Shown: positions 7,546 through 62,292 of the stretch, piece by piece
Position numbering within the stretch: the first letter of the stretch is position 1
Layout of the letters: every line of letters starts with the position of its first letter
Source: Nemertoderma westbladi
Taxonomy: Eukaryota; Animalia; Xenacoelomorpha
Assembly (NCBI GenBank): GCA_032718475.1
Contig: JAUCBJ010008112.1
Span: forward strand, 3,660-67,659
Direction of reading: 5' to 3'
DNA length: 64,000 bases
Notes under the pieces: model-generated
What the model was told of the DNA's origin: nothing
Database searches by the model: none
The model's input: only the letters and a program-made list of their open reading frames with translations
Program-made: the position numbers and the translations under genes

Positions 7546-9396
7546 CATACAAGATTTGTAGCAAAGATTGCTACAATGAACGCACGCACGCTGAAAGCAC
7601 TTACCAAACAGGGTGACATGGTCGCTCTGGCAATGGAATATAACATCGACATCATCTGCATCCAAGAACATCGGATTTGTCATGAAGACACTGCCATGAA
7701 GTACAATGACATTGGAAATGGATGGACGTTAGTAACAAGCTCAGCAGTAAGAAACTGCTAAGAATTATGCTAAGCCCATTTGTACTTAAGACCATAAACA
7801 ACATCGAATCTATAAATTCCAGGGTTATGATCGCAACATTTGATGGGAATCCCAAGGCAACAGTTATATGCTGCTACAGTCCAACCAATGCCTCAGAGCC
7901 AGAACAAGCAGTCAAGTTTTATGAAGAACTGACTGGACTTATTAAGTACATTCCGAAACACAATGTTAAAGTCATTTCTGGTGACCTGAATGCGCAAATT
8001 GGCCCAGAAGACATCAAGGGTTACACCTACTGTATAACACCAGTTCTAACAGAAATGGGTACTTACTTTTAGACCTAATGAAAGAATGTGAATTGATACC
8101 AACAAACAACATGGAACCAAAGCACAACTGGATTACATCCTTATAAACAAAAAGTGGAGAAACAGCATGATCAACTGCGAGGCATACAGCTCGTTCAACC
8201 TAATTGGTTCGGACCACAGAATTGTGACTGCAGAGATCAGACTCAGTTTGAGAACCAGCAAACCCAGGACAAGCAAGCAAATCAACTATGACTGGGAGAA
8301 ACTCAGAACTGACAATGCTGTAAAGGATGCTTATACAGTAGAAGTTCAAAACCGCTTTGAAGCACTTCAGTCAATGGATGAAGACCAATCCACCGATTCA
8401 ATATACCAGAATATAATAACAGCCCACAAGGAATCAGCTAAGAGGCATATCCCCCAGAAGCCCAAACGAAAACAGTATGTGCCATGGCAAAACTCTGAGG
8501 ATACTTGTAAGAGAGAAGATCTTAAGATAGCCTACAAAGTTAAAACCGAACAACCAACAACCGAAAACATTAACAAGGTTGAGAAAGCTAAGGACGATCT
8601 TAAATTGGCCTACAACATCAGCCAGGAAAAGTACATACGGGATAAAACTGAAGCAATTATTACAACTGCTCACATACAGCAACAATCAAGACTTACCTGG
8701 CAAACTGTAAATGAGGTATCTGGTCGGAAACGTTGTGCAAAGGGGCGCCTCAAAGCCGATAATCCTGAAGAACGTGTTAGGAAGAGGAAAAATCACTTCA
8801 GCAACTTGCTTGGGCATCCACCAAACATCGAGGTCAGCCCTACAAGGAAAATATATGACAAGACACTACCTATAGAAACAGGGGACTTCACACCTGCCGA
8901 ACTCCAAAGAAGCATTAAAAGCATGTCCAATAATAAAGCGAGTGGATTAGATGAAATCCCAACGGAGGTATGGAAAACCGGAGTGCTAAACAGACCATTA
9001 TTGAATGTTTGCAACCGGATGTTAAAAGGGGAAAAGCCACCACCAATTTGGACTAAAGGTCAACTAAAGCATCTCCCCAAGAAAGGAGACCTCGGCATAC
9101 CAACAAACTATCGAGGGATCTATCTGCTTGTGGTAGCTGCCAAAATATACAATAAAATGTATTGAGATAGAGGTAAAATGCTTGAAATCCTAAGAGCTTA
9201 TGGAATACCAGAAGTAATTGTTACTGGCATTGGATTGCTATATTGTGACACAGAAACGCAGGTACTCTCACCAGATGGTGAAACTGAGTTTTTCTCAATC
9301 CTGGCTGGCGTACTGCTAGGTGAAACATTAGCACCATTACTATTTGTAATTGTGCTGGATTACGCAATGAGGACGGCCACAAAGGGTGAAGATCTG
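7546..9396 (+). pseudogene. decayed non-LTR retrotransposon (APE endonuclease + RT, RTE-like), cut off by the LTR of element A
   Basis: APE motifs ATMNARTL, ICIQEHR, YSPT, SGDLNAQIG, SDHRIV. RT motifs KASGLDEIP, PKKGDL..NYRGI, GVLLGETLAPLLF. Stops, frameshifts and internal deletions are present. Confidence 0.9.
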
Positions 9397-14832: not shown

Positions 14833-15945
14833 AGCTGCTATATGAGTTTATCGATATTATAATTGATAATAATTAGGCCAGCGGTCGTTGCTGCCTCCCC
14901 CTCAGTGCCCCCGGACAGCGCAAGATCCTCAGCGCTGATGCACTGTCGTCGCTGTGCCTCTCGCCAACGTAGTAGCTACACAACGACAACAATAACCAGC
15001 GCGAGTCACTCCACTGTCCGTCCCAAGGGCTTAGATATACTGGAGGTACTTGCTATAGAGGCAGGGTAACTTTCACAACTGCGACTCGCTACTGTAAACA
15101 CACTTTAGTAGTAACATTCACCTATAAATACACAAATTCCACATTCCTGTCACAATTTGTACAAATTCGGGCCATTTGTCCGTTAGTCAAATGCCTTCCA
15201 GAATGCCACGTTATTATTATGTATCCCTGGATACTAGCAAGGTGCTATTTATTCCGCATTCTATTCAATGGGGCAAGCTTTCTATTGTTCTTTTAACTCA
15301 CTTCTAATTCTAGCGTGGTTGTTGCTATGGTGACATTATGGAAAGCTAGCGGTAGAATTAGAGTAATTCTCATGCATACAGATCTGGGATGCTATTTAAT
15401 AGTGATTCTTTAATTGTCATTATTCCCTTTATACATGATTTTATGAATTTTATCGGCTATTGACTGTACACTGGAGATTCTCTCACACTAATATACTTAA
15501 TAGGGTGAATCTCTGCTCCCATGATCTATTAATTAATGGAATTTTGGGAATGTTATAAATTGTATAAAATGACAATTTATCAAATTCATGAGAGGATATG
15601 AATTTAAAATTTATTCCCGTGAATTTTATTATTTGATATTAAAATAGATACAATTTTATTCCAGAACATAGCTGGGAACTAGGATCCTTAATTCCAGAAA
15701 TTTGTCTTTTAAGAGTATCGGTAAGTACTACGATACCTTAATCGACTAGAATTTTAGAGGATCGAAATTTTTAACAGATTTTGATTTATAAATTTTCTAG
15801 AGTCAATTTGTTAGCATTTCCTCTATTTTAACATTTGTTTTAACAAACGTAATAAATATTTATTACATATTTAATATTTAAGATGGGCACCGATTTATTC
15901 CAGAACATGTCTGGGGACGTTAACCACTGATTCTAGAATTTTGTC

Positions 15946-17876
15946 TATAGAATTATATTCCCTAAATGCCGTGGATTTTCAAAATTTTATTTTATTCGGA
16001 TTAACTTTTGTAAAGATTGCTTTAAGTTCTCATTCGTATTGGTTCTATCATTTGTACATCTATCGGTCAAGTGGTTCAGTAGCTCAGTTGGTAGAGCGTT
16101 GGAAATTATATGTGTAGTAGGTATCGAGTTCGAATCCTAGTAAGTGCGAATTATTTTTTGTACAGAATTTCAACTCATTTAAATTAACCGCTACAAATTA
16201 ATTGCATTCGTCTGTACCAATGAGGCTGTAGTTATTTGATTGTAACCAATGTCGTGCAAGTTATATATTAGCTGGACCAATAGCTATCTTTAAAACCCCG
16301 TTAGAACCCATAGAACAATCGAGAATTTTCTCGATTGATTGCGGCACAAATTTGCTATATAAAGGTGCGATTTGTTCATTAGTTATCAATCTACACTACT
16401 TCAATATTCTCTCAGTTATTTAGTTATCTGATATTTGTTTATTCTGTGCTTAGTTTATTCTCAGATTACATTGTATTATAATTGTATCTTCTGTAATAAA
16501 GTCAGAATATTCTCTCAGCTTTTCTATCTGTTTTACTATGGATTCACTACGGTGAACAAACTCAGGGACAGGATGGCCGGCTAGAGATCGGGCCGCAGCA
16601 ATGAACGGGAACATCACGGGAATGTAGACGAGAGACAACCCGCAATACCATCTAGAGTTATTCGCCCATCGCCTGAAAGGTTAGACAGCGTTCGATCCTT
16701 GCTACCTAAGTATAAGACCAAAAGATCAAAAGGTAGACGTAGTGACACGCTGTAAGCCCAAAATTACATCATAGGGACTGTACTGTCTTGATTCAGGAAA
16801 ACCCACAGTAGACCTTCACATTCCTACGGGGGAGGGAGAGCGCAGGCAGATACTAGTACGCAGATAGGACGTAGGCACACCGGTACAAGGCATACACATT
16901 GGTTAGGGTGCAGCAAACTGTACGCTTAACTCTTGCTAAGTACAGGTGCGCGTGCGACTATTTGCAGTACGACAGTGTCCATTGCATTAGAACTTGTAGG
17001 CTAGGGGGGTTGCTGTGTTTTCACCTGAATTGGGATTGTACCGTTCAGGCGGTAGGGCAGTTTACGTACTAGGCGCAAATAAATTGAGGCTATCAGGGAT
17101 ACTAACATCTACCGTGTCCCCGCCAACGCCCTAATAGGAAGTTACCCGGACTACCTGGGTGACTAAAATTCTAGATAGGAGCCAGGATAGCTATTAGTAC
17201 CTGTACGCCTACAGTAGTAAACTAACACATCTCTTCTTAGTATCAGGGACCTGGTACCTAAAATTGCCGAATTCTGGGCGTAGTATTAACCTTATGCCTG
17301 AATTTGAGTCCTGGAAATACGCAAGAGGGGAAGGAACCTTATCATTCGTGAGTATTGGACCTACAAGTTACAAAATTAGAATATTCGTAAATGCACACCG
17401 TACCCAGTAATTATATATGTGAAGGAGCAAAACTGTTTTGACCGTTCAGAATTAACACACGCGCGTTAGAAATTATTTACACCTCGAAATATATAAAATT
17501 AACTTTGTCCGTACTGTGCTTTGCCCGCTAGTTAGACATCTCCAAATCTCTGCCTGTACCTAGCTAGCGTCCCTTTGCCCAACCATATAAATCACACCGC
17601 GGCAAAGTATACGAGCCCCTTAGTCCGTCAGTGAGTCAGCCTGATTTTAGGATTCGCTGTGCGGGATTTTGTTTTATCGAAGTTTGTCTGCTCGTAGACT
17701 GTTTTCTGCCTCACCGGTTATAAGAGATCAATACTGCAATATATTCGCTTACTTAGAGTTTACTGTTTTGGTGAGAAGGTCGGATTTATGATTTGATTTA
17801 CAAACTTTACAGTAAGATATTGCAGGTATTGTTACCGTCTCTTCCAATAGTAGGAATAGGCGTATCTCTTCAATTA
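15946..17876 (+). repeat. 5' LTR of element B
   Basis: Matches 30100-32030 at offset 14154, with only three substitutions noticed by eye. CCAAT boxes at ~16217-16281 and TATATAAA at ~16357. Confidence 0.95.
16072..16160 (+). ncRNA. tRNA-like Pol III cassette inside the LTR (second copy ~30226-30314)
   Basis: A box TAGCTCAGTTGGTAGAGC, B box GAGTTCGAATCC, then a T6 run. Acceptor and anticodon stems do not form convincingly. Confidence 0.6.
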
Positions 17877-17887
17877 GTAGGAATGTG
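17877..17887 (+). promoter_or_regulatory. putative self-priming PBS of element B (GTAGGAATGTG)
   Basis: Abuts the 5' LTR, lacks TGG, and is the exact reverse complement of CACATTCCTAC at 16817-16827. Confidence 0.55.
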
Positions 17888-18683
17888 TTTTACTGAACTA
17901 CGGTTCGGTAGGACTAAAGTTATTTGAAAATTTTGTATTTTGAGGTAAAAATTTGTATTTGATTAGCTAAGTGCTAATTTTAAAATAAAATTTGATTTGA
18001 ACCGCGTGTAAAATATTTTTGGAATTGAATACCGGTGTTTAAAAGGGTTTAAATACCATATTGTACCGGTACAAAATTTTCGTAAAGTAAAACCTAACTC
18101 TTTTGTTTTTTCAGGATTCAGAACTCATTTCTAGACTGTAACGGGAGCAAGACCGTGTTTAGCAAGTTTGGGAGATAGATAACTCAACAACTTTGGTTGG
18201 GAAAATCGCGTTTCGTCCGCAACGTTAAAAACGGAAAGGTTCACGTTCGGTTTGTATCTGGGAATCTGTTTTTCTGGAGAATTATTGGAGTGGGTGAGTT
18301 CGAAAAGTTGCATAAATAAGTTAGGCATTACCGTATTAGTTAAAATTATTGTGGGTTCCACTGTCTCAAGTATTTATGCATTCCGTATGATTTCTTTGTT
18401 CATTGCTGAATTAGTCCGTATTATTGTATTTAATTTACCTTTTGATAACGCATATCGTTATCCGATTTATTTGTTATAAAATTGGCTGCTAGGCTAATTT
18501 TATTATATACTTATTCCGTGACATTTATTTGCTGTAAAATTGGCCGTTTAGGCTAATTTTATCCATCTGCTATAAAATCGGCCGGTAGGCTAATTTTATA
18601 AGACTGTAATTAGTACCGTTTTGTATAAATACGGTAAAACTCGATACTTTGACACTCACTTTACTTGACTTACAACTACCGAA

Positions 18684-21600
18684 ATGAGTGACAAACAAGA
18701 CTATACGAAAAATACACAAACCGACTATGACTCATGTGACGCGGATAAGTCAGCAGCGGAAGGACAACAGGGGAAGACTCGCGAGCCTACCGAACCTACA
18801 CCGTGTGCGTCACCAGTACATCCAACGGGAGTACCGGATGCCGTAGTACGAGGCGACGGCAGGACCGAGGACTTTCTAACTGTTCCGCAACCTAGATACA
18901 GGGAAACGGACATGGTAAGTTCAGCAGGAAGCACAGAAAGTGTGGTTAGAAGCGTCGGAGGTTACATGGCGCATATAACCAGGAGTATTGGAGAAGGCCA
19001 ACGCATATTAGACGGGTTGACCGCTCCGATGTCTCGATTCGAGTTCTACACCCTCCAGGTTAGAGTACAGAGTAAAGTATATAAGTCCGTAGATAATCTA
19101 GTTGGCCTACAAGATCTAGCTAGACAGAGACAGGACATGGATACTCAACTTAGAATCCTCGAGAAACTAATGATCACTAGAGAGAAACTGATTCAGTTTA
19201 AGTCGACGATTAGACAGATACAACAGGAACAAGCGGACCAGTTGTTAGGTGAGTCAGTTTCGGACGAATTATTACAACCCGAGGAAGAACAGGAACTGTA
19301 CCGACTGGATGGACAATTAAAACACCTGACGGACCACTTACGTATGTGCGGCGAAGACGTCGGAGATTGGGAAACCGTGCCGGAATATACGAAGGAAACT
19401 TCACCCGTACGAATTGAATCGGCACCGGGAATACTGGACCAATCGTTGGTAAGTATTCGTAGCGAAATCTGCGAGGGAAGTATAGTCACGTCAGAAGTTG
19501 CTCGACAACAGCAAGAATTCCACCGACAACGACAAGAAATGGAAGAACAAGCTCAACTTCTAGTGATGCAAGCAGCAGTAGAGGAAGAGAAGCTACGCGT
19601 TGCGAATATAGCAAGAATCTCTCATCTACAGGAACAAGCTGAATTAGAAGCAGCTGAAGTAGAAAGGTTAGAAGTAGACATTGCCCGACAAGCGGCAGCG
19701 GCAGCGGCCGAGGTAGAGCGACGAGCGGCAGCGGCCGAGTTAGAGCGACGAAACGCAGCGGCCGAGTTGGAGCGACAAACGGCAGCGGCAGAATTACAAC
19801 GAGAAAGGTTAGTTTCGGAAGCGCGGGCCGAAATGAAAACACGGCAAATAAAAGCTCAATCCGCTATACGACAAGCGGAGTTTGAGGCGCAACGACAACA
19901 AACGGAACAACGAGAGAAGACAGTGAAACTTCATTTCGAACTCGAGAAGAAGGCGAGAGAATTAGCGAACGCCGAGGAAGATTTGGATCAAAAGGCCCGC
20001 GATAGATCGATGAGATCTCGTGACGGACATGATTTGGACCAGTTAGAGGTAAGACATCGCCAAATTCAGGAACGGAAGAAGGAAGGAAGCGTAGGAGCAC
20101 CCGGACGGGAACGACAATTAGTAAAAGACGTGTGTCAACGATTCCCACAGGTAACTCATATGTTTGCACCGGTTACGAGTAAGGAACCTGTTTCGATTGC
20201 GGGTAGTAGTGATATTTCTCCTATCCATGGTGCGACGGAACACAGGTTTGTTATTCCGGACGAGTTTACACCGCCAAGAGCAACGTCGTCGCCCATTCCG
20301 AAAGTCAAGGTAAGTAACCCACCGATTACGGATCGTAGTAGTTTATTGACCGGACCTGCGCTACTGACGACAAAACAGGTGAGTCCACCGTCGACACCTA
20401 AACCCGTTACACACTACGCTTACCCAATGACGTTTCGACCAACAAGGCCTTTGGATTCAAATGCTGTCATTCGCCCACCGAACCAGTTTACATCGCAATC
20501 TACGACTTCGAGGAAGACTTGTGAGCCTACCGAACAACGGAGAACAGAGACGCGACCATTCAACCATTTTACATCGCAATCTACGACTTCGAGGAAGACT
20601 TGTGAGCCTACCGAACAACGGAGAACAGAGACGCGACCATTCAACCAGTTTACATCGCAATCTACGACTTCGAGGAAGACTTGTGAGCCTACCGAACAAC
20701 GGAGATCAGTGGACGATGTTCCGAAACGAAACGTGAGAATTCGTACGACGCAACGAACGCGAGCACGTCGACCACCATATCCGGATGATAGTAGTACTTC
20801 GAGCGAATCGGATTACCCGAAACGCGAGGTATTTAGAACAGGGGCGGCCGATGAATATAAACGCGAGCGTTCAGACAACTCCTTTGCAGACAATCCTCCA
20901 CAGAATACACCAACACAGAAGGCGTTACAACCAACGGACGCAATTAGTACACAACAGTTCGCCGACATCCTGCGACCAGTTGTTAACAAGTTGGCTCAGA
21001 TCGAGGAACGTCTGGAGGAAGGTTACACCGACAGTTCGAGAAATTCCGAATTCGAACACAATAGACACCCGAAGGAACCACAAAGACCGGTACCTTCAAA
21101 CCCCACATCGTATCAGGGAAAAGCGCCAAGAAGGGATATCAACCAAGTTACCAACCAAGGACGCGAAACTCTGAACGTTGCCGAGGAGATAGCGAAATTC
21201 GCAGCCAGACAGGGATTGCCGGTACAACAACCACCGAAGTTCTCCGGTAGCTCAAAACACTGGCATACCTTCGTAGACTATATCGAATCCCAGATCGCCG
21301 TGTGCGCCTTTACATCACGGGAGAAGTTCAATTACTTGCTCCAAACGTTGTCAGGAGAACCTAAACGTTTGGCGGAGACTTTCGTCGGTGTACCGGACGC
21401 TTTCGAACTAGCGTACGATCGTTTAACTTCGATATACGGAGGTACAGTGAGCATGGCCAGGTCAGTAATAGAGGAACTCTGTAAGGGAGGGGCTATCACT
21501 AAACCCGTCGACTTACTAAAACTAGCTGACGAGATCAAGAACGCTATCACTACCTTAAGATCAATTGGACAACTTGATTACGGGAATACCCCTACAGTCC

Positions 21601-24600
21601 TATTAAAGATAATAGGACGACTCCACCATCGACTTCGTCGGGAGTGGAGGAAGGTCGAATACCAGCGAGAGGAGCGGGGAGGATTCTTAAAATTAGAAGA
21701 TGTGTACCTTTTAATATCCAGGGAGGCGGTAGTAGAAACTCGATCTAACTACACCGACCAGCACATCGTGGCAGAAGGAATCACACTGCCATCCTCTAAC
21801 CGACAAAAACCCCAGACAACATCCACTAAGACGGCCACTTACGCCACACCGACGGAATCACGACAATTCTCAGACGGTAATAGAGTATCTGCGCCCATTG
21901 GGACGAAACAGACGAGACAGCAACTCAGCACCGACTTCAGTGGCTGCCAATACTGCGAGCATCTAGGTAAGCGGTATATCGGTCACAAGTTACGAGGTTG
22001 TCGACAATTTCGCGAGTTGAACTCGGAAGAACGACGGCTGCAAATACGGCCACTGGACTCTTGTTGGCGGTGTACGCGACACGGACACGTCCGTAAAGAC
22101 TGCCCAAATACCGACACTTGTCCATCCTGTGGACGCAATCACGACGGTCTGCTCCACACAGACAGCCACACGCCGACGAAACGCTTCGCCAGGGAACACC
22201 CGGAAGCAGCAGCGAGATGTGATGCGGCTTACCAAAAACGAGAATCAAAAACGACTCCAACCTTCGTGACCCATATTGAGGATTGCTTCTCAGAACAATC
22301 CGGATCGTCGGATGAAGAATCAGAAGACGACGATGAATATTCCAATGGAGACGAACAACCGTCGATCGCGCTCCTGACTACTGATCAACTGAAGGGATTC
22401 AGTGTAATCCCGATTAAGGTTACTGGCACAAAGGGGAGCAAGAGGATCTATGCGATTCTAGATTCAGCCTCATCCCATAGCTACGTGGACGAAAAGATAG
22501 CTGACGTCGTGACGGATCTAAAACAAGGTAAGCACGTCAGTTATACAGTAAGTAGTATGCACGGACAGCGTGCAATACCAGTGACACGAGTCAAGTTAAA
22601 CTTAGACTCTCTTCTTCCAAAATCGCAACACAGCGAGAGGGAGAGGTCTTTGTTGCCCTTTAGAGATCTAACCTTTGCGGCTACGAAGGACTTTAGTAAC
22701 CTACTAGGTCCAGTACCGGAACAATCTCTAGAGGACCGTAAGTATTTCAGACACCTTGGTGTACCCGAATGTCCTGTCAATTATAGATCGGTAGCAATGC
22801 TGATCGGGACAGACCAATTCAACCTACATCAGGTGTGGGAAACCAGACCATCGGCAGTTGTAGCGGGAAACGCATACGCCTGCAGAACGCCGATAGGGTG
22901 GTATACTCGAGCGCCTGTGCGCACACTAGACGTAAGTGACGAGGAAGACGATGTACAGAGTACATGTAGTTTATTAACTACAAATTCAATTCATTCCTTT
23001 TCACACGACGTGAACCATACTACACTACAGTCGACAAAACACGACAGACGTGTAACTAGTATGATAAGTCACAAGGAGCAGCTAACCCACAAGGTGAGTT
23101 TAGAACTTGGGGAGAAGACGAGTCAGCTGGAGATTCCATCGACGACAGATGATAGGCTTGCGAGTCTACCTACCCCAATAACCTCAACAGTGCCCGTCGA
23201 TATCGATGATGACGCGTTGAGAAATCATCAGTTGGAACAAGCCGCCTTGGACAAAGAATTAACGGAGAAGACTATCAGGTGGTTAGAACAAGATACAGCT
23301 GAACCTGGTAGCTACGAACCTTGTATGTCGGAACAGGAGAAACAATCTCTGAAGATCATGGAAGATACTATCCGCCAGACGAAAGACGGACATTATGAGG
23401 TAGGGATGTTATGGCGTAGCCAAAGTCCTAAACTTATAAACAACTATCCACTGGCTTTAAGACGTCTACACTCAATACGGCAACGTCTATTGAAGGACGA
23501 GAAAGCCCATCTGCAGTATAACACTCAGATGGAGACGTATTTGACAAAGGGATACGCTATCCGAATGACTAACCCGGAGCGAGTGACCGACCAGACGTAC
23601 TACTTGCCACATCACTACGTGAGACACCCCGACAAACCAGACAAAGTACGTGTAGTCAATGACTGTGCGGCTCTGTTTGAGGGAATGTCCCTCAATAGTG
23701 AGTTGATGGATGGACCGAACATGAATAATTATCTTATGGGGGTGATTATGCGCTTCCGTCAGCGTCAAGTAGCCTTTACTTGCGACGTTGAAGCGATGTT
23801 TCACCAAGTAAAAGCGTTAGAGCGAGACAGAGACAGTTTGCGGTTCCTCTGGTATCCGGAAGGAGACTTAAGCCTACCACCAGCGACTTACCAAATGCAA
23901 GTTCGCGTTTTCGGTGCCAGAGACAGCCCAAATTGTACGATGTACGCCCTAAAGCAAGCCGCTAGGGATCAGAAACATCTATATGACCCAGAGATAATTA
24001 GAATTGTGGAGCGTGACTTTTACGTTGATGACGGATTACAGAGTTGCGACACAGTAGAACGTGCTACAACAGTAGCACATCAATTACGGGACTGCTTGGC
24101 GGGCGGAGGTTTTAACCTCACCAAATTCGCCTCAAACAGTGCCGAATTAGTAGACTCATTCGGAACTACTGAGCGTGGAGGTGGTGACATAGACCTAGAG
24201 TTCGAACCACTACCGACGACTAAGGTGTTAGGGCTCTTTTGGGACCCAAACACAGACAACTTTCGAGTGAAGGTGAGACTGGACAGTCAAGGGAACACAC
24301 TGACAAAGAGATCATGCTTGTCAAAATTGAGCCGATTGTTCGATCCGTTAGGATTCATCAGTCCAGTGATACTGCAAGCCCGCATTTATATGCGCAGTAT
24401 CTGGAAGGATGGACTAACATGGGACGAGCCGATCTCATCAGACCAAGTGGACTTATGGAAGACCTGGGAGGCGGAATTATCTTCGCTAGAGGATTATTTC
24501 ATACCCAGGGTTTACTTTCCATTGCAAAGTACATTTCCTGACAACTTGGAACTACACTGTTTTTCTGACGCCAGTGACAACGGTTTTGGTGTGGCAGCGT

Positions 24601-27600
24601 ACTTACGCAGACAAGTAGAATCAGACGAGTTCGATGTTTCGCTCATTACTTCTAAGGCTAAGACCATGCCTACTAAGTATATGACGACACCACGAGCCGA
24701 GCTACAAGCCGCAACCCTGTCAACCACCATCGTGAACCTCATACAGACAGAACTACAGTCGAGTTTACAGATATTTTATTGGACTGACGCGACGTTGGTT
24801 TTATTTTACATAAACAACGACACACTCGAATTCAAGACATTCGTTGCTAACCGTCGCGCGGAAATTCTAGACCGTTCAATAAAAGGGGATTGGCGACATT
24901 GTCCCGGACCACAAAACCCAGCTGATATTGCGTCGCGAGGAATGATGCCTGAGGAATTCTGTAAACCGGAGAACAAAGAGTTTTGGCAACACGGACCCCA
25001 GTTCTTGCAGAAATCGACACAAGATTGGCCTCCGTTATACGACAACAAGTCCAACACTATTCCCAAGGACGCCGAAATCAAGAAACCAAAAAAGGGGAAG
25101 ACAAAGAAAAAGACGACGGCGGCGAAACTCAAGAAAAAACCGAAGGCGAAATGGAAAGATATAACTTCAAAGGTCAAGAGAGGAAGACTTGCGAGCCTTT
25201 CTACACCAGACATATCGCCAGACGGTCAACCAGACACGTTACCAGACGGTCAACCAGACATGTTACTAGACAGCCAACCAGACATTTTGCCAGACATATC
25301 ACAAAATGTTCCACCAGACGCTAGTAACACACTGACAAACAGTAAAGCCGCAGTTTCCCTATTGGAGCGGCCTTCTATTGACAAACAACCAGATACGTTA
25401 CTAGACGTATCGCCAGACACATTACTAGACAGTCGACTAGACACTAGTAATGTATTGACTAACAATAAAGCCGCAGTTTCCCTATTGGAGCGGCCTTGTA
25501 TTGACAAACTACCAATTTTGACACACTTGAGCAACCATAAGCACGGTGAAACCTCATGTATTACAGATGTTAACTACACCCTAATTATGGAGAAAGGGAT
25601 ACAAGGAGAGCCGAGATGGGGATATGATATCCAAGAGGAGGCAGCAGCACCATTCGAAAGATTTGGAGCCAAGGATTATACTATATTCGGTATAAAAGAA
25701 TTATCGGAAAGTACAGCGAAACTCGCGAGAACTAAATATGACTCGAATGTATTAAAGAGAAGGCAAAACGCATTGAACGAAAGAATCGAAAGTTTGCGCC
25801 AAACCTTCAACGAACTTTACCCGTACGATGCTTTGTGTGATACGGGAGACATTAGCGAAGACCCCGATACTGAAATTAGTCGTTTGTATCATACCATGCA
25901 ATACCTAAAGGCGCACGAACCTATGCCCGCGGTACGCGATGAATTCGATGGAATGCATCTTTACAGACGAACTCGAGGGGACGATAGAGAAACCAAGGAA
26001 GCATTTTCAGTTTATAAACTTTATTATCAATGCGGTTCTTGTATGCGCGAACAACGAAATGCGATTCCGATGCGTTTGAATAAGGAAAATCCCGAACCGA
26101 TATTGGCGAGGTGTTCGAATCATCAACAACTACGCTACCAGGAAGGAGGGTATCCTTTATCGAATCCATATCATTCATTTGCTATGACCGGACCAAAGGC
26201 GGGAGAAACTGTCATTTACCCACCTAAGGTTGTTGAACCCGATGTATTTGAACTTACGCTGGACGAGGCGAATCAGTCAACCCGCGAAAAGAAAGAAGCT
26301 CTTAGCCTATACAGAGCCTACAAGGCTTTCGAGAAAGGTGAGATGGAAGAATGGGGTGGAAGACTCGCGAGCCTACCTTGCCATTGGACGTCACACGATC
26401 AAACTTCAGCTAAGGAGATGACACCGGAAGTTTTCGAGAGCATAAACTTTGCTCAAAACGTTATTCAGAGACTACAGATTGCATCCCCGGAGAGGCCAAG
26501 AGAAATGCAACCGTATAGTACTTCAACTACGAAACCATTGAGTACGACACTCAATTTCCCTATTAGTATACCAGTCCGACAGGATACGACGTACGAAATA
26601 CCCATCGTGGATCATCCAGAAATCATTTCAAACTTGGAGTTTCTTCCTGCAGTTGTTTTCAGCGATATGAGTAAGATATATGATTTACGTAGACATATTA
26701 CTCAAAAGGTCGTGCACAACGTTCCACCTCATATTCAAGATTTCAAGGAACTGGATAGAGCTGGTGCCGACATAGCTCCGAGTAATCTGAAAGGATATCT
26801 AACCAAGACGATTCGTTTATGGATTGGAACCGGAACCTTCGAGTCGGATACAGATATTGCCGCAGATTGGCGAGGTAAGGTTATTCGTTTCGATGAGGAT
26901 AAGGATATAGAGAAGATTTGGCAACCTTCGGAAGAATTGTTGGATGAATGGACTAGGACGTTTAGATCGTTTCAGGAAAACGGTTATATGTTTTACGATA
27001 ACGAGGGCGGCAGTCATCAGCAGAGTTTGACTTCTAAGACTATACAGATTAGAGCGGCGGACGGAGTCCTGCACGTTTTCAGTAGACAGAGGAGCGACAA
27101 ACGAATGCCGATACCTCCAGCGAATACAAAGCGACACCATCTTATCACCGATATAGTAAAGAAGATGGACCAAGCTTGTAATATTGACGCTAGAATGCTA
27201 CCGAAGATGGTAAGAAACATGATTTTAGATAAAACTGTTGTAAAGGTTGGATCAGGAGTAAGGGAGGATTTAATTAGCGACTTCGCCGGCATGACGGACA
27301 GCGATGACCGACTACCGACACCATACGTCGACACTCGACCTCTTATTCTGTGGTCTATAGAACAGGGATATTTTCGTGAGTATAATACTCAGAAGACTGG
27401 AACTGGATACATTTCCTACCTGTTATTCAATTGGGATTATAAGGAAGGTAAAAGAAACAAGTATATTGAAACTTATGGAGAAGGTGATACTCCAGATATG
27501 AGTGAGTTTGAATCACAGCTTAAATGGAGAGGATGCGTGTATTGGGCTATTACGTCACCTCCAAGAGCGGTCTTACAATATTATTTAGCAATAGAGTCGT

Positions 27601-27722
27601 CAGTGAATGTTTGCCTAATCGCCGACATCGTGTCTCGGACTCTCAAAAGACATCCACTTTGTCTCGGAGAAGATCATACGTTCTACATGGAAGGGAGAAT
27701 TCGTACCGACGTGTTTAGATGA
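18684..27722 (+). CDS. Element B polyprotein: Gag - aspartic protease - RT - RNase H - novel region - DEDDy-like exonuclease (no integrase)
   Basis: Gag PPKFSG..W..F and EKFNYL, Bel/Pao knuckles CWRCTRHGHVRKDC and CPSCGRNHDGLLH. PR ILDSAS. RT YYLPHH, CDVEAMFHQV, FYVDD. RH FSDAS, PRAEL, WTDA, NPADIASRG. Then FYDNEG, ILDKTVVKVGSGVRED, YVDTR, YYLAIE. Confidence 0.92.
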   Translation: MSDKQDYTKNTQTDYDSCDADKSAAEGQQGKTREPTEPTPCASPVHPTGVPDAVVRGDGRTEDFLTVPQPRYRETDMVSSAGSTESVVRSVGGYMAHITRSIGEGQRILDGLTAPMSRFEFYTLQVRVQSKVYKSVDNLVGLQDLARQRQDMDTQLRILEKLMITREKLIQFKSTIRQIQQEQADQLLGESVSDELLQPEEEQELYRLDGQLKHLTDHLRMCGEDVGDWETVPEYTKETSPVRIESAPGILDQSLVSIRSEICEGSIVTSEVARQQQEFHRQRQEMEEQAQLLVMQAAVEEEKLRVANIARISHLQEQAELEAAEVERLEVDIARQAAAAAAEVERRAAAAELERRNAAAELERQTAAAELQRERLVSEARAEMKTRQIKAQSAIRQAEFEAQRQQTEQREKTVKLHFELEKKARELANAEEDLDQKARDRSMRSRDGHDLDQLEVRHRQIQERKKEGSVGAPGRERQLVKDVCQRFPQVTHMFAPVTSKEPVSIAGSSDISPIHGATEHRFVIPDEFTPPRATSSPIPKVKVSNPPITDRSSLLTGPALLTTKQVSPPSTPKPVTHYAYPMTFRPTRPLDSNAVIRPPNQFTSQSTTSRKTCEPTEQRRTETRPFNHFTSQSTTSRKTCEPTEQRRTETRPFNQFTSQSTTSRKTCEPTEQRRSVDDVPKRNVRIRTTQRTRARRPPYPDDSSTSSESDYPKREVFRTGAADEYKRERSDNSFADNPPQNTPTQKALQPTDAISTQQFADILRPVVNKLAQIEERLEEGYTDSSRNSEFEHNRHPKEPQRPVPSNPTSYQGKAPRRDINQVTNQGRETLNVAEEIAKFAARQGLPVQQPPKFSGSSKHWHTFVDYIESQIAVCAFTSREKFNYLLQTLSGEPKRLAETFVGVPDAFELAYDRLTSIYGGTVSMARSVIEELCKGGAITKPVDLLKLADEIKNAITTLRSIGQLDYGNTPTVLLKIIGRLHHRLRREWRKVEYQREERGGFLKLEDVYLLISREAVVETRSNYTDQHIVAEGITLPSSNRQKPQTTSTKTATYATPTESRQFSDGNRVSAPIGTKQTRQQLSTDFSGCQYCEHLGKRYIGHKLRGCRQFRELNSEERRLQIRPLDSCWRCTRHGHVRKDCPNTDTCPSCGRNHDGLLHTDSHTPTKRFAREHPEAAARCDAAYQKRESKTTPTFVTHIEDCFSEQSGSSDEESEDDDEYSNGDEQPSIALLTTDQLKGFSVIPIKVTGTKGSKRIYAILDSASSHSYVDEKIADVVTDLKQGKHVSYTVSSMHGQRAIPVTRVKLNLDSLLPKSQHSERERSLLPFRDLTFAATKDFSNLLGPVPEQSLEDRKYFRHLGVPECPVNYRSVAMLIGTDQFNLHQVWETRPSAVVAGNAYACRTPIGWYTRAPVRTLDVSDEEDDVQSTCSLLTTNSIHSFSHDVNHTTLQSTKHDRRVTSMISHKEQLTHKVSLELGEKTSQLEIPSTTDDRLASLPTPITSTVPVDIDDDALRNHQLEQAALDKELTEKTIRWLEQDTAEPGSYEPCMSEQEKQSLKIMEDTIRQTKDGHYEVGMLWRSQSPKLINNYPLALRRLHSIRQRLLKDEKAHLQYNTQMETYLTKGYAIRMTNPERVTDQTYYLPHHYVRHPDKPDKVRVVNDCAALFEGMSLNSELMDGPNMNNYLMGVIMRFRQRQVAFTCDVEAMFHQVKALERDRDSLRFLWYPEGDLSLPPATYQMQVRVFGARDSPNCTMYALKQAARDQKHLYDPEIIRIVERDFYVDDGLQSCDTVERATTVAHQLRDCLAGGGFNLTKFASNSAELVDSFGTTERGGGDIDLEFEPLPTTKVLGLFWDPNTDNFRVKVRLDSQGNTLTKRSCLSKLSRLFDPLGFISPVILQARIYMRSIWKDGLTWDEPISSDQVDLWKTWEAELSSLEDYFIPRVYFPLQSTFPDNLELHCFSDASDNGFGVAAYLRRQVESDEFDVSLITSKAKTMPTKYMTTPRAELQAATLSTTIVNLIQTELQSSLQIFYWTDATLVLFYINNDTLEFKTFVANRRAEILDRSIKGDWRHCPGPQNPADIASRGMMPEEFCKPENKEFWQHGPQFLQKSTQDWPPLYDNKSNTIPKDAEIKKPKKGKTKKKTTAAKLKKKPKAKWKDITSKVKRGRLASLSTPDISPDGQPDTLPDGQPDMLLDSQPDILPDISQNVPPDASNTLTNSKAAVSLLERPSIDKQPDTLLDVSPDTLLDSRLDTSNVLTNNKAAVSLLERPCIDKLPILTHLSNHKHGETSCITDVNYTLIMEKGIQGEPRWGYDIQEEAAAPFERFGAKDYTIFGIKELSESTAKLARTKYDSNVLKRRQNALNERIESLRQTFNELYPYDALCDTGDISEDPDTEISRLYHTMQYLKAHEPMPAVRDEFDGMHLYRRTRGDDRETKEAFSVYKLYYQCGSCMREQRNAIPMRLNKENPEPILARCSNHQQLRYQEGGYPLSNPYHSFAMTGPKAGETVIYPPKVVEPDVFELTLDEANQSTREKKEALSLYRAYKAFEKGEMEEWGGRLASLPCHWTSHDQTSAKEMTPEVFESINFAQNVIQRLQIASPERPREMQPYSTSTTKPLSTTLNFPISIPVRQDTTYEIPIVDHPEIISNLEFLPAVVFSDMSKIYDLRRHITQKVVHNVPPHIQDFKELDRAGADIAPSNLKGYLTKTIRLWIGTGTFESDTDIAADWRGKVIRFDEDKDIEKIWQPSEELLDEWTRTFRSFQENGYMFYDNEGGSHQQSLTSKTIQIRAADGVLHVFSRQRSDKRMPIPPANTKRHHLITDIVKKMDQACNIDARMLPKMVRNMILDKTVVKVGSGVREDLISDFAGMTDSDDRLPTPYVDTRPLILWSIEQGYFREYNTQKTGTGYISYLLFNWDYKEGKRNKYIETYGEGDTPDMSEFESQLKWRGCVYWAITSPPRAVLQYYLAIESSVNVCLIADIVSRTLKRHPLCLGEDHTFYMEGRIRTDVFR
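20481..20706 (+). repeat. 81-bp in-frame tandem repeat (~2.8 copies) in element B gag
   Basis: NQFTSQSTTSRKTCEPTEQRRTETRPF units start at 20481, 20562 and 20643. Confidence 0.9.
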
Positions 27723-29312
27723 TTCCTTGAACCCTTCTACAACTCTGACGCTCAGTGTAATGCCTTTACTCGAGCAGGATTTAGTATATTTCGAGACGTG
27801 TATCTTCGCTGTGCGGGATCTCTTATCGAAAGACCATCTATGTTTACATTGTTACCCTATGAAGGAGAACGTATCGTGGAGATTACGGAAGAATCACGGC
27901 AGACGCGCGCGCCTATCGGTCACCTTGGTGATGAATTCGAAGTAACTACTACGATCGCCGACGATCCTTTAGAGGAACTTCTTGAGATAGAAAGGAACCT
28001 CCCGAAGAAATCTCAGACGGAGATTCGACAACTTGAAGCAACAGATGCTATAGTTTGTATACAACCTTCAGAAACCTACCAACCCATAGACCCAGATGAT
28101 TATGATTATAGTATGGGAGGAAGCGCTCGACCGATTGGAGATCTTATATACGAACGAGTGTGGTACCCTGCCAATACGATGTGTAGTAAATGTGGCGTCG
28201 CTGGACATCATATGGCAAAGTGCAGTGGAAAGCACATTACTACGACTCAGCTAATCTGTGGATGGTGTGGGGATCAAGGGTCTCATACCTTTTATACTTG
28301 CTGGAGATTTATGGCTCAATGTACTTACTGCAATATAAAGGGACATCGAGCATCTGAATGCCAACTGAGAGACATACCTTATGAACACGAATCTGTAAAA
28401 CTCGTGAGGAAGTTATTTGATGAGTGGGAAGATTTAGCCGACGAACATGTATCGGCACAGAGAAGACGGTTTCCGATGAGAGCGCATCTCGGATTTTGGG
28501 CGGTAAATCCCCAGACGATGATGTCGGAAGGATATATCTCCGCTATGCCCCAATACGACGAACTTATCGAGGTTGTCGATATTTTGCCCCACGACAGCGG
28601 ATTCCGAGTGGTGCGCGAGTATCTGTTACAAATTCACCCGGATAACAAAAACACGTGGAATTTTCAGAAAGTCGTTAATCGGATTACGTATGGTGAATTC
28701 GATCGTTTCCGAACTGAAAAACGGAATAAAGGAGCTTGGTTAACCGTCGCATGGGCGTACCGAGCCGCGTTTTACCACAAACGTATACGAGCGAGCGTAT
28801 TCGAGGAAGAGGAGGTCCTAGAGGCGACAAATATATCAGCCACTCCGGTTGCGCCGTCTGCACGTCACCCTCGGGAGGACGGGCAGGGTAGGATCATACG
28901 GGTCCAGAAGGTGGGCCAACAATTAAAGAAAATTATTAATGTAGAAGAACGCAAGGGAGTTGAGCCGACTATTCGAGTTACTCGGGATACGGTATCACTT
29001 CCAAGAGAACCAGTAGGAGGATCGGGACATACACCAGCTGATCAACAGGGGGCGCAAGCTACTCTTGGGTCTGCGTCGTCCACTTCTCGCGCGTTCCCAG
29101 ACGTTCTACCAACTGTAGTGACAACTGATCGGTCACGAGGAATCGGTCGAGGTTTTGGGATGCTAAATAAACGAATTTGCGAGGAAATAGTCGCACCATC
29201 TCTCAACGTCCCAAGTAAACCAGTGACTCGCCCCACAAGTCCCATATCGCGAGCAAAGTCACCTGTGCGCAGTTTTCGAGGACGCGGCAGGGCTCGATCC
29301 ACTAAGCGATAA
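27723..29312 (+). CDS. in-frame continuation of the element B polyprotein (three Zn knuckles, basic tail) after a single TGA
   Basis: Same frame as 18684. VFR*FLEPF aligns with A's CFRRFLTLF. Contains CSKCGVAGHHMAKC, CGWCGDQGSHTFYTC and CTYCNIKGHRASEC. Confidence 0.8.
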   Translation, partial: FLEPFYNSDAQCNAFTRAGFSIFRDVYLRCAGSLIERPSMFTLLPYEGERIVEITEESRQTRAPIGHLGDEFEVTTTIADDPLEELLEIERNLPKKSQTEIRQLEATDAIVCIQPSETYQPIDPDDYDYSMGGSARPIGDLIYERVWYPANTMCSKCGVAGHHMAKCSGKHITTTQLICGWCGDQGSHTFYTCWRFMAQCTYCNIKGHRASECQLRDIPYEHESVKLVRKLFDEWEDLADEHVSAQRRRFPMRAHLGFWAVNPQTMMSEGYISAMPQYDELIEVVDILPHDSGFRVVREYLLQIHPDNKNTWNFQKVVNRITYGEFDRFRTEKRNKGAWLTVAWAYRAAFYHKRIRASVFEEEEVLEATNISATPVAPSARHPREDGQGRIIRVQKVGQQLKKIINVEERKGVEPTIRVTRDTVSLPREPVGGSGHTPADQQGAQATLGSASSTSRAFPDVLPTVVTTDRSRGIGRGFGMLNKRICEEIVAPSLNVPSKPVTRPTSPISRAKSPVRSFRGRGRARSTKR

Positions 29313-30099
29313 AAGGGAGGGCAAGGGTGGACGGAAGACTCGTGGGCCTTTCTTATGATTTTGTGATTTATTTGAATTTATATTTATATTTGTGTTTATT
29401 CCGAACTTATGCAATTTATATTATTCCGAACTTATGCAATTTGTATTGTTCCGAATTTATGAAATTTAGAAATAAGAACTTATATTTAGTAAAACTTATA
29501 TTTAGTAAGAATTTATATTTTATATTTACGTGATTATTTCGAACCTATGCAATTTATATTATTCCGAACTTATGCAATTTATATTGTTCCGAATATTATG
29601 CAATTTATATTTTATAAGCAGTATTTGTATTTACAGTGAAATAGAAAGTTTTATAGATAGAAAATTTTGTGCTCAGAAAGACTCATATTTGTAATTATTC
29701 CAAACTTATGCAATCTACATTTAGGTAAGAAAGTATTTGTAATTACTTGAATTTATGCAATATTTGGGATGCAATAGTAGATGGAAGACTCGCGAGCCTT
29801 TCTTATTGTTTTCATTTATTTGTATTTGTAATTGTTTGAATTTATGCAATATCTGAGATGCAATAGATTTATATTGGTGAATTTAATTTAGATTTATATT
29901 GTACTTACTTAGTAAAGCCTTAAATACGTAAAGTTTGAATTTGTAATTATTTTTGTATCGAATCATTACGTAGAAAGGAAGTATTGTTTGAAATTTAATT
30001 GTAAATATGTAAGTACGCCCTAAGTATTCTATAGTTTAATTGATTATTGGTGAAAACCGTATATTTTATGCACGATAATATCCTGTTTTCATGGAGCGG

Positions 30100-32030
30100 T
30101 ATAGAATTATATTCCCTAAATGCCGTGGATTTTCAAAATTTTATTTTATTCGGATTAACTTTTGTAAAGATTGCTTTAAGTTCTCATTCGTATTGGTTCT
30201 ATCATTTGTACATCTATCGGTCAAGTGGTTCAGTAGCTCAGTTGGTAGAGCGTTGGAAATTATATGTGTAGTAGGTATCGAGATCGAATCCTAGTAAGTG
30301 CGAATTATTTTTTGTACAGAATTTCAACTCATTTAAATTAACCGCTACAAATTAATTGCATTCGTCTGTACCAATGAGGCTGTAGTTATTTGATTGTAAC
30401 CAATGTCGTGCAAGTTATATATTAGCTGGACCAATAGCTATCTTTAAAACCCCGTTAGAACCCATAGAACAATCGAGAATTTTCTCGATTGATTGCGGCA
30501 CAAATTTGCTATATAAAGGTGCGATTTGTTCATTAGTTATCAATCTACACTACTTCAATATTCTCTCAGTTATTTAGTTATCTGATATTTGTTTATTCTG
30601 TGCTTAGTTTATTCTCAGATTACATTGTATTATAATTGTATCTTCTGTAATAAAGTCAGAATATTCTCTCAGCTTTTCTATCTGTTTTACTATGGATTCA
30701 CTACGGTGAACAAACTCAGGGACAGGATGGCCGGCTAGAGATCGGGCCGCAGCAATGAACGGGAACATCACGGGAATGTAGACGAGAGACAACCCGCAAT
30801 ACCATCTAGAGTTATTCGCCCATCGCCTGAAAGGTTAGACAGCGTTCGATCCTTGCTACCTAAGTATAAGACCAAAAGATCAAAAGGTAGACGTAGTGAC
30901 ACGCTGTAAGCCCAAAATTACATCATAGGGACTGTACTGTCTTGATTCAGGAAAACCCACAGTAGACCTTCACATTCCTACGGGGGAGGGAGAGCGCAAG
31001 CAGATACTAGTACGCAGATAGGACGTAGGCACACCGGTACAAGGCATACACATTGGTTAGGGTGCAGCAAACTGTACGCTTAACTCTTGCTAAGTACAGG
31101 TGCGCGTGCGACTATTTGCAGTACGACAGTGTCCATTGCATTAGAACTTGTAGGCTAGGGGGGTTGCTGTGTTTTCACCTGAATTGGGATTGTACCGTTC
31201 AGGCGGTAGGGCAGTTTACGTACTAGGCGCAAATAAATTGAGGCTATCAGGGATACTAACATCTACCGTGTCCCCGCCAACGCCCTAATAGGAAGTTACC
31301 CGGACTACCTGGGTGACTAAAATTCTAGATAGGAGCCAGGATAGCTATTAGTACCTGTACGCCTACAGTAGTAAACTAACACATCTCTTCTTAGTATCAG
31401 GGACCTGGTACCTAAAATTGCCGAATTCTGGGCGTAGTATTAACCTTATGCCTGAATTTGAGTCCTGGAAATACGCAAGAGGGGAAGGAACCTTATCATT
31501 CGTGAGTATTGGACCTACAAGTTACAAAATTAGAATATTCGTAAATGCACACCGTACCCAGTAATTATATATGTGAAGGAGCAAAACTGTTTTGACCGTT
31601 CAGAATTAACACACGCGCGTTAGAAATTATTTACACCTCGAAATATATAAAATTAACTTTGTCCGTACTGTGCTTTGCCCGCTAGTTAGACATCTCCAAA
31701 TCTCTGCCTGTACCTAGCTAGCGTCCCTTTGCCCAACCATATAAATCACACCGCGGCAAAGTATACGAGCCCCTTAGTCCGTCAGTGAGTCAGCCTGATT
31801 TTAGGATTCGCTGCGCGGGATTTTGTTTTATCGAAGTTTGTCTGCTCGTAGACTGTTTTCTGCCTCACCGGTTATAAGAGATCAATACTGCAATATATTC
31901 GCTTACTTAGAGTTTACTGTTTTGGTGAGAAGGTCGGATTTATGATTTGATTTACAAACTTTACAGTAAGATATTGCAGGTATTGTTACCGTCTCTTCCA
32001 ATAGTAGGAATAGGCGTATCTCTTCAATTA
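30100..32030 (+). repeat. 3' LTR of element B
   Basis: Direct repeat of 15946-17876, preceded by a short purine-rich GGAGCGG (PPT-like) and followed by the TSD. Confidence 0.95.
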
Positions 32031-32674
32031 TTGTCTTTCAAGTATATCGGTGGGTGCCGTGATATCTTAATCGACAAGAATTTCAGATGGTCAAAGGGTT
32101 CAACAGATTTATTTAATAGATTTCATTAATACTATTAATATTTGTTAATATTTTGAGCTTCAATACTACTGTTAAATGGACATCATTCTACTATATGTAT
32201 TATTTAATATACGGTATGAGAGCAATATTGCAAGAAGCAATGTCAGTGAGAAGAGGCAAGTCGTTTCCAAGGTCTACCCAGAGCTTGGTATAGCCGAGAC
32301 ACGAGGATCTGAACTTTGCATTCCTAATACTCCACTTACCAATAATACTTGAGTATAGTAGGGGCGGTATATTGTACTTTTAATAAGTATGGACATTTCA
32401 TCTTACTGTAGTCACGTATTTATAGTATGATACGGACAGTAAGGAAAGAGAAAATGAATTATTTCTCGCCGTTAAACGAAATATATTATACTAAGTAATT
32501 AAGTAATAAAACACGAATATATTGCACTAATCTACTGAATAATCTCTAAAATATTATTCTACTAAATAAAACTAAAGAAAACGATTATATAATAAAATTA
32601 CATAATAATACATACATAAATATAAAAATAAAAATAAATAAAATAATGCAGTCACACACCCACTCCTAACACTG

Positions 32675-54550: not shown

Positions 54551-55828
54551 TGTAAAAGCTTCTGTGGGATGCAACTGGTCCTTCGCCCCGCGATCCAGTT
54601 TTTCCCCCATACGCTGAAATACTCTGAAACCTGCTGTAAAAGCGTTTACAGATATAATTGGATCCCCTAGCCCTCGGGGTGCTGTATAAGTGTTTTTAAC
54701 GGACATAAAATAGATTCTTCTGAATGTGTGCTTTATGCGGACGTAGCAGGGTACACAACCCGCAATGCGGCATTTCACTGTCACTATGTCAAGGGAAGGA
54801 TTCTGATTACGACATCTCCCAGCTGGATGATGACGTGGAGGGAGCTCTCATTGGACTCCTGGTTCCTTTGTTTTGGTCTAACAACCAATCAGGGTGATTT
54901 GCGTTTTCCTTGAAGAGATACCTACAGCAGCTCCCAAACTCAGTGTTTATGTCGTTCCATACTGCCTGAAGATCGGCTGGAATGACGCAATGTTTCTGCC
55001 TTTTTATAAGAACATTAGTAGGCTAAATTATAGAAAGCATAGCTATTATCGATTCGATCCGATTCGATTCGACACGATTCCAATTTATAACTTAACGATT
55101 CAATGCAATCTAATTATATCTTAACCTACCGTCATACTGCTTTTACTGTTTGTAATTTTGTATCAGTATAATTGGATGTTATTAGTTGAAGAATATCAAT
55201 AATCAACCCACATTTTCCCAATATCTTTGATACACTACAGGTTAGAGAGAAAGGTTATGTACAACAATTGCGACTTTATTATTGTGTTTGTAGTGAATCT
55301 AATGTTGTTTGACAGACACTACCTGAGTCCAGTGCATATCTCTTTATACCTGATCAAAGTCAGTAACTGTCGGCATATCAGTGAGCAGTGTTGTGCGTTA
55401 CCGGTAGCGTGCGTGATTGTAAAGTGATTGGATCTGATAATAAAGCATTCCTAAAGAATGCGCCCTATGCTTGAAATTTAAGCCATATCGTTGTGTGTAG
55501 TATCAGTCATAACTCTGTTTACATAGGTAGAGCGCCACGTCCTAAAAGGAACTGCTAATATTTCCCGAAAGTGAATAATATTTGTCAGAGATTATATATT
55601 AGTAATCAATCGAATAATACAGTAGGCTTGACCGCAAATAAATTTAAGCCCACGAATCCAGTCTCCCGGTGTTATAAACGGGTCATTTGGACGCGCATGG
55701 ACTGGCTTCGGCTAATGTTTTTGGTTTGTTTTGTATTAAATCTTATCATCTTACAAAAGGCAGATTATCAATAAAGACATATAAATTTCGGCAGGTTAAA
55801 CTGCTGAAGGTCTATAAAAGCGCGTACA
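54551..55828 (+). repeat. 5' LTR of element C (TGT...ACA)
   Basis: Begins TGTAAAAGCTT and ends GCGCGTACA like A's LTR. CCAATCAG (~54885) and TTATAAGAAC (~55004) are conserved with A. Confidence 0.75.
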
Positions 55829-55839
55829 ATAATAGCTAT
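55829..55839 (+). promoter_or_regulatory. putative self-priming PBS of element C (ATAATAGCTAT)
   Basis: Abuts the LTR, lacks TGG, and is the exact reverse complement of ATAGCTATTAT at 55039-55049, 34 nt downstream of TATAAG. Confidence 0.55.
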
Positions 55840-62122: not shown

Positions 62123-62292
62123 TAATATATGGAGTGGGTGTGTGACTATATTATTTTATATTTGTTTTTATTTTATATTTATGTATGTATTACTATGTAT
62201 TTTATTATAATCGTTTTATTTAATTTTATTTAGTAGAGTGTTATTTTAGATTATTTAGTAGATTAGTGCAATATATTAGTGTTTATTACGTA

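Follow-up and report, generated by a model that had tools for sequence, protein, structure and literature searches.

Self-priming and the Bel/Pao lineage

Self-priming of reverse transcription is known from Tf1 and Tf2 of S. pombe, Tj1 of S. japonicus and the Tf1/sushi and Tcn1 groups of Ty3/gypsy (PMC7175516, PMC4600332, PMC6317226) and, in Ty1/copia, from TAR/Houba/Osr-1 (PMC6317226, PMC4600332). In Tf1, the primer consists of the RNA's initial 11 bases and is released by an RNase H cut between bases 11 and 12 (PMC7175516).

Bel/Pao elements are described by the ICTV as primed by host tRNA, with an 18-nt primer-binding site (PBS) that complements the 3' end of tRNA-Arg or tRNA-Gly. The profile gives them an integrase, genomes of 4.2-10 kb and LTRs measuring 0.2-1.2 kb, and considers their replication poorly understood (PMC8742986). 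No report of self-priming in Bel/Pao was found in our literature search, whose coverage left out most subscription papers and Repbase reports. The search found nothing on a self-encoded tRNA in a nematode Cer element, and PMC3118150 contains no mention of PBS, primer or tRNA.

Here, we analyzed a 64,000-nt window of the Nemertoderma westbladi genome containing an LTR retrotransposon, element B (15946-32030, + strand; 16,085 nt), of the Bel/Pao lineage and without integrase. As in Tf1, the PBS of B lies next to the LTR and is complementary to the element's own LTR over 11 nt (PMC7175516). Unlike Tf1/sushi, which have a Ty3/gypsy reverse transcriptase (RT), B carries Bel/Pao domains, so that a Tf1-like mode would here operate outside that clade. 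It also differs from known self-primers in the position of its candidate primer: 871 of the 1931 nt of the LTR precede it, with the best promoter about 430 nt upstream, and the distance to the PBS is 1,060 nt. With Belpaoviridae, B shares Peptidase_A17, DUF1759 and the order gag-PR-RT-RH, but it departs from the ICTV description in its 11-nt self-complementary PBS, 1.9-kb TA...TA LTRs, length of 16.1 kb and lack of integrase (PMC8742986).

Boundaries, age and affiliation of element B

The 5' LTR (15946..17876, +; 1931 nt, TA...TA termini) and the 3' LTR (30100..32030, +) differ at three of 1931 nt, which identifies B as a young, recently inserted element. It is flanked by the target-site duplication (TSD) TTGTC at 15941..15945 and 32031..32035 (both +). 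Loose ends at 15941/15946 in the DNA runs X1 and X3 represent empty-site alleles and confirm the insertion point; loose ends before 15946 were also seen in runs X4 and X5. The LTR end at 17876 is thus fixed independently of any pairing, by the LTR-LTR comparison, the TTGTC flanks and the empty-site alleles. The short purine-rich tract at 30090..30099 (+) is a candidate polypurine tract, with GGAGCGG adjoining the 3' LTR; its counterpart in element A is GGGAGCAG, and the polypurine tract of Belpaoviridae is about 10 nt long. The end of U5 consists of a diverged 27-nt tandem duplication (17823..17876, +), in which 17850-17857 is a further copy of the 8 nt that open the PBS.

Element B is nested within element A, a Bel/Pao element on the - strand consisting of gag-pol-integrase pieces (40097-32675), pieces of an extra ORF (14847-10572) and a 3' LTR (10493-9397). 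Element A (40097-9397) is broken and has a long spacer where B inserted. Its exonuclease-like and zinc-knuckle sequences form a separate ORF at the position of env, and the window yielded no 5' LTR of A. The target of B was a diverged tandem repeat in this spacer (15670-15945, 32031-32060) with units of about 120 and 240 nt.

A single ORF of B (18684..27722, +; in-frame stop at 27720-27722) encodes Gag, protease, RT and RNase H, followed by an extension and no integrase. RNase H motifs are present, and the Gag/Pol domains include PF05380 (E 2e-41) and PF03564 (Peptidase_A17, DUF1759). The nearest relatives of the RT-RNase H region bear Peptidase_A17 and are 36-43% identical (best 120 of 426 matches); the named ones among these 120 belong mostly to marine invertebrates, with some from vertebrates. 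By domains and nearest relatives, B is assigned to Bel/Pao. Integrase had no Pfam match in B, and a tblastn search of B with the integrase region of A gave nothing at E<1; in terms of its gene content, B is therefore classed as an integrase-less Bel/Pao derivative rather than a canonical member of the Belpaoviridae. A metagenome search with the RT-RNase H region yielded one locus of 1,276 nt without LTRs from 36 candidates. Troyka and the Kuafuorterviruses were considered and rejected as not being of B's lineage; the passages on them have no PBS content.

Within U3, a segment at 16066-16145 is tRNA-like, with look-alikes of the RNA polymerase III A box and B box recognized by eye, although ARAGORN and Rfam made no call. 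Its B box contains one of the three LTR differences (16129/30283). Contigs about 81% alike over 16032-16342 suggest that the segment may be a SINE or a part common to another family.

Pairing between the LTR and the primer-binding site

The first-pass annotation, made from the sequence alone, had claimed that the 11 nt directly after the TSD-defined LTR end are the exact reverse complement of a stretch within the LTR, and this was confirmed. The PBS GTAGGAATGTG (17877..17887, +) follows the LTR with zero spacing and contains no TGG, and the candidate self-primer CACATTCCTAC (16817..16827, +) matches it perfectly, the match ending at 11 nt on both sides. The polarity is what priming requires. 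The 3' C of the primer is paired to the base that directly follows the LTR; extension would therefore start on the last base of the LTR.

The expected chance count of such a match is 0.0004-0.0006 under Markov models of orders 0-3, in agreement with the figure of about 0.0005 given in the annotation, and among 20,000 shuffled LTRs, 12 equaled the pairing at offset 0 and 36 did so at offsets 0-3. Chance complementarity without any role nevertheless has to be weighed, since the match was noticed post hoc and complements of at least 11 nt in the LTR exist for 11 of 12,183 internal positions and for six of the 1,550 non-coding ones (the observed PBS counted). However, the match sits at one position defined in advance, and it does so in two elements (12 and, for element C described below, 26 of 20,000 shuffles), and we regard chance as very improbable.

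No TGG occurs from 17870 to 17906, an interval that begins 7 nt ahead of the LTR end and extends about 30 nt beyond it; an ordinary tRNA 3' end is thereby excluded as the primer. ARAGORN found no tRNA genes in the window, and an Rfam search of 15000-19000 gave a single match, a chance one. A primer formed at a splice junction was also considered and rejected: no GT-AG joint in the LTR of B complements the PBS over 8 nt or more, and in the DNA the primer forms one uninterrupted stretch.

Next to the primer, a purine-rich stretch (16831..16843, +) may form an inner stem with the U5 end at 17860-17871 (-15.3 kcal/mol). None of 1825 non-overlapping LTR windows was as good, and when partners for the final 25 nt of U5 were compared, the 25 nt that follow the primer surpassed each of 1825 other windows in the LTR. 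The whole-RNA minimum-energy fold omits this stem and prefers other partners, and element C has no such stem. Being of low complexity and noticed post hoc, the inner stem is retained as weak evidence.

A second pairing in element C

Element C, which we take to be the element so named in the first-pass annotation, is a deleted relative of element A. Its 5' LTR (54635..55828, +; TG...CA) has a TATAAG at 55005, and its end at 55828 was set by homology to the 3' LTR of A and by the TG..CA ends rather than by a TSD. The C PBS ATAATAGCTAT (55829..55839, +) again has zero spacing and no TGG, and is complementary over 11 nt to 55039..55049 (+). This candidate primer lies 34 nt after the TATAAG, close to a normal start position; it has no initiator, and its helix probability is only about 0.3.

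The pairings of B and C had been called independent and unrelated in sequence. The letters are indeed unrelated, as similarity of the LTR plus leader of B to C and A was not significant (best E 1.5), so independence holds for sequence; it does not hold for origin, as both elements are Bel/Pao.

Taken together, the geometry of the pairing, its statistics, the lack of TGG near the LTR end and the second case in C support self-priming, which we consider probable in some form. It is also conceivable that a host tRNA fragment or another small RNA primes at the PBS, with the LTR-PBS helix masking the site as a structure for regulation or packaging, and copia lineages with priming by half-tRNAs are known (PMC6317226). 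The PBS letters of B and C are unrelated, each matched by its own LTR over exactly 11 nt up to the LTR edge, and this explanation would therefore need two host primers and two co-evolved decoys; we find it unlikely.

Other features of the two relatives concern their LTRs and coding regions. Donor-like sites occur at an aligned LTR position in A and C (~9961, 55241), that of C lying downstream of its primer. A hairpin near the U5 end is common to C (55788-55811) and A (~9441-9418), with C-G in C and T-A in A (by eye). Within 57818-64000, C has an open ORF from which two internal deletions, as compared with A, have removed RT and integrase; behind the ORF lies a tandem repeat of 1029 nt (62293, 63322) without relation to the 5' LTR of C.

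Predicted RNA start sites and folding, and likely splicing

A CCAAT/TATA cluster with a transcription start near 16385 had been pointed out previously. The cluster (16217..16392, +) is real, with CCAAT at 16217, 16246 and 16277, TATAWAWR at 16356 and an initiator whose +1 is at 16388. Motif prediction marks 16388 as the mRNA start of the strongest promoter in the LTR. A second initiator (YYANWYY, 16816..16822, +) has its +1 at 16818, directly at the 5' end of the primer, and is a predicted start of genomic RNA. This motif is weak and was spotted after the fact: the LTR holds 18 initiator motifs in 1931 nt, giving about a 3% chance of one within 1 nt of the primer end. There is no TATA about 30 nt before 16817, the nearest TATAAG being 106 nt upstream.

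The predicted probability of the helix between primer and PBS is 0.89-1.0 for each pair in an RNA of 16817-17900 and 0 in an RNA of 16388-17900. Folding the RNA had been proposed as a check, and the outcome depended on the start: the helix was present in the minimum-energy fold for seven of seven starts at 16700-16817 and for none of three starts at 16385-16600; minimum-energy folds of 1-1.5 kb are unreliable, and a gap of 4-6 kcal/mol is small.

A GT-AG intron of 1435 nt (16680..18114, +; AAG/GTTAGA ... TTTTTCAG/G) would contain the primer site, U5 and the PBS. The joint of 16679 to 18115 is found in a single contig of run X4, with a depth of 250, a shorter side of 25 nt and good splice sites, and is not listed for runs X1, X3 and X5. 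With one contig and a short side of 25 nt as moderate evidence, the intron is likely. Although labelled 'DNA?', X4 is probably an RNA run, as judged from this splice-site joint and from 39 A>G places, compared with 16, 14 and 3 in the other runs. Since assembled contigs cannot reveal RNA ends, contig depths were left out of expression ranking and start finding. Splicing from 16679 to 18115 would result in an mRNA without both the primer site and the PBS, for which the literature search found no clear precedent.

Three further observations concern X4 and the leader. Of the 93 differences in an X4 contig over 17007-17706, those listed are mostly A>G (+), pointing to possible ADAR hyper-editing of LTR RNA or a diverged copy. 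Loose ends of two X4 contigs start exactly at the donor 16679 and enter unrelated sequence, possibly from splicing of the LTR into neighbouring host sequence. Six short upstream ORFs of 1-30 codons (16538-16625, 18376-18390) precede the ATG at 18684 in the leader of the predicted spliced RNA.

The annotation had suggested that the primer may be internal and need processing. Such internal self-priming would use unspliced RNA from 16388, the helix forming in the particle with a Gag chaperone, an endonucleolytic cut after 16827 producing a primer of about 440 nt, and splicing alone separating mRNA from genomic RNA. Upstream of the primer, 16356/16388 is the sole combination of a TATA with an initiator. 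In an RNA from 16385, the helix can be forced at a cost of only 4.0 kcal/mol, and priming needs only a 3'-OH. The helix probability of 0 from 16388 as against about 1 from 16817 stands against it, as do the initiator at the primer 5' end and the joining of the upstream promoter's donor to 18115, by which both sites are lost. It also leaves unexplained why the complementarity is exactly 11 nt long and stops, in B, at an initiator and, in C, about 34 nt past a TATA-like box. We do not favour this arrangement and consider it rather unlikely.

Proposed replication of element B

The reading that we prefer, tentatively and with confidence falling just short of even, is that B primes reverse transcription with its own LTR stretch in the manner of Tf1, on an RNA from about 16817-16818, beside a separate spliced mRNA from 16388. 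Genomic RNA would start at about 16817-16818, and its first 11 nt are predicted to pair, over a distance of about 1,060 nt, with the PBS. On the model of Tf1, RNase H of the element would cut after nt 11 and RT would extend the new 3' end from the last LTR base. The strong-stop DNA would then jump to the 3' LTR via an R overlap. An AATAAA downstream of the primer site (17078..17083, +), through its copy in the 3' LTR, would provide this overlap for strand transfer; use of 17078 and not of another AATAAA at 16495 would be required. The upstream promoter at 16388 would likely give a separate mRNA, spliced from 16679 to 18115 and without primer and PBS, that serves translation only. Judging from the 5-bp TSD, integrase may be supplied in trans by a relative.

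The nearest precedent for two starts is Tf2, in which only one of the alternative start sites yields an RNA that can be reverse transcribed (PMC5341516); unlike in Tf2, the non-replicating RNA of B would have the longer 5' end and be spliced. Separate RNA pools for translation and reverse transcription, as proposed for B, are also described for BARE1 of barley, with two TATA-linked starts (PMC3735527). BARE1, however, is a plant element in which splicing makes a Gag-only RNA (PMC3735527), whereas the intron of B would remove primer and PBS from the leader. Homology-based, integrase-independent insertion of the Tf1 type (PMC11042837) was considered for B and set aside, as the 5-bp TSD would fit integrase better.

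If self-priming holds, it would be present in all three classical LTR superfamilies, and such elements would be expected to escape tRNA-fragment silencing. Its occurrence in Bel/Pao would bear on whether self-priming preceded tRNA priming, as has been suggested (PMC3601003). The arrangement of two starts with the sites spliced out yields exact predictions of where the RNA begins and of which primer should be attached.

Variation among copies of element B

In runs X1 and X3, 22 substitution rows (21 places) at a frequency of at least 4% fall within 16760-17940, none in the primer or PBS, and no indel affects either site among the 12 of 17 rows listed for this interval. This invariance is weak evidence, as it is expected by chance: with 21 places per 1181 nt, about two-thirds of 22-nt samples are invariant. 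Compensatory changes among copies of the B family, a further check that had been proposed, were not seen among the X1 and X3 variants. A variant at 16841, with about one-third of the depth, breaks one pair of the inner stem, and there is no matching change at 17862. Run X5 has no cover over the primer site or PBS and was left out as evidence.

The PBS region is also found behind two other U5 ends. Two X1 contigs lack one 27-nt unit and go from 17857 to letters of 17885-17893, and one contig each in X1 and X3 has 17787-17875 replaced ahead of the PBS region. X4 has loose ends at 17849, in the 27-nt tandem duplication of U5.

An exonuclease-like domain in place of integrase

The extension after RNase H is homologous to the extra ORF of A (E 4e-59). 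It contains a likely DEDDy/WRN-like exonuclease domain with a YDNEG motif (26898..27665, +), in frame with RT-RNase H, and beyond the stop the same frame continues with zinc knuckles (27723..29312, +), also homologous to the extra ORF of A. The exonuclease-like and zinc-knuckle extension is thus fused to RNase H where integrase would be (25030-29312), despite the youth of B, its 5-bp TSD and its unusual TA...TA ends.

The domain of A is unbroken (12770-11931). The exonuclease domains of B and A are 34% identical and have in common D-x-E (YDNEG), a G-x4-DL-x2-D block and Y-x3-E (by eye); the DEDDy pattern comprises ExoI D-x-E, ExoII D and ExoIII Y-x3-D. In the Atlas, both fall near clusters of the WRN-like 3'-5' exonuclease PF01612 (B 0.93, with the family on 38% of members; A 0.92, with 50%). 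Pfam and protein searches of the region gave no match, the PDB search gave a weak one to EXD2 (E 1.8), and AlphaFold models of the region were unusable (pLDDT 31.7 and 30.9). On these sequence features, the extension likely holds a DEDDy-type 3'-5' exonuclease domain. A similar 3'-5' exonuclease-like DEDDy ORF3 with a variant acidic motif follows pol in Juno and Vesta of bdelloid rotifers (PMC5408684); there it is a separate ORF, whereas the domain of B, fused to RNase H, occupies the place of integrase and is followed by zinc knuckles.

The speculation in the first-pass annotation that the element's own exonuclease could trim the primer describes something possible but unsupported, nothing tying the domain to priming. 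For a 3'-5' enzyme, the primer could come only from the 3' end of an RNA, for example one carrying the second copy of the primer sequence in the 3' LTR (30971-30981). The 3' end of element RNA with this copy would then anneal to the PBS, and the DEDDy-like domain would trim the overhang to the helix edge. The likely domain lies in frame with RT-RNase H and before the stop, and would thus be packaged together with them; element A, which is of the LTR family of C, carries the homologue mentioned above, and the pairing ends sharply at the 3' side of the primer. However, Tf1 needs no such enzyme (PMC7175516), and trimming would strip R from the molecule concerned, so that strand transfer would depend on a second RNA. 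A search of the paper on the DEDDy ORF3 for PBS or priming found nothing (PMC5408684), and the domain is itself a prediction with models at pLDDT 31-32. We consider this origin of the primer improbable.

Equally doubtful in our estimation is the wider proposal of a Bel/Pao lineage without tRNA priming, with two RNAs per LTR and a fused 3'-5' exonuclease that finishes the primer 3' end inside the particle. A primer finished by an exonuclease would, if true, be a priming route undescribed for any LTR element in the literature searched, and would offer exonuclease domains in retrotransposons a first testable role.

Other features of the window

Apart from elements A, B and C, the window contains a 62-63-nt minisatellite at two places (1-533 and 41457-42556), nested long inverted repeats (46986-49128) and two fragments of non-LTR retrotransposons (7710-9165 and 49521-50822).
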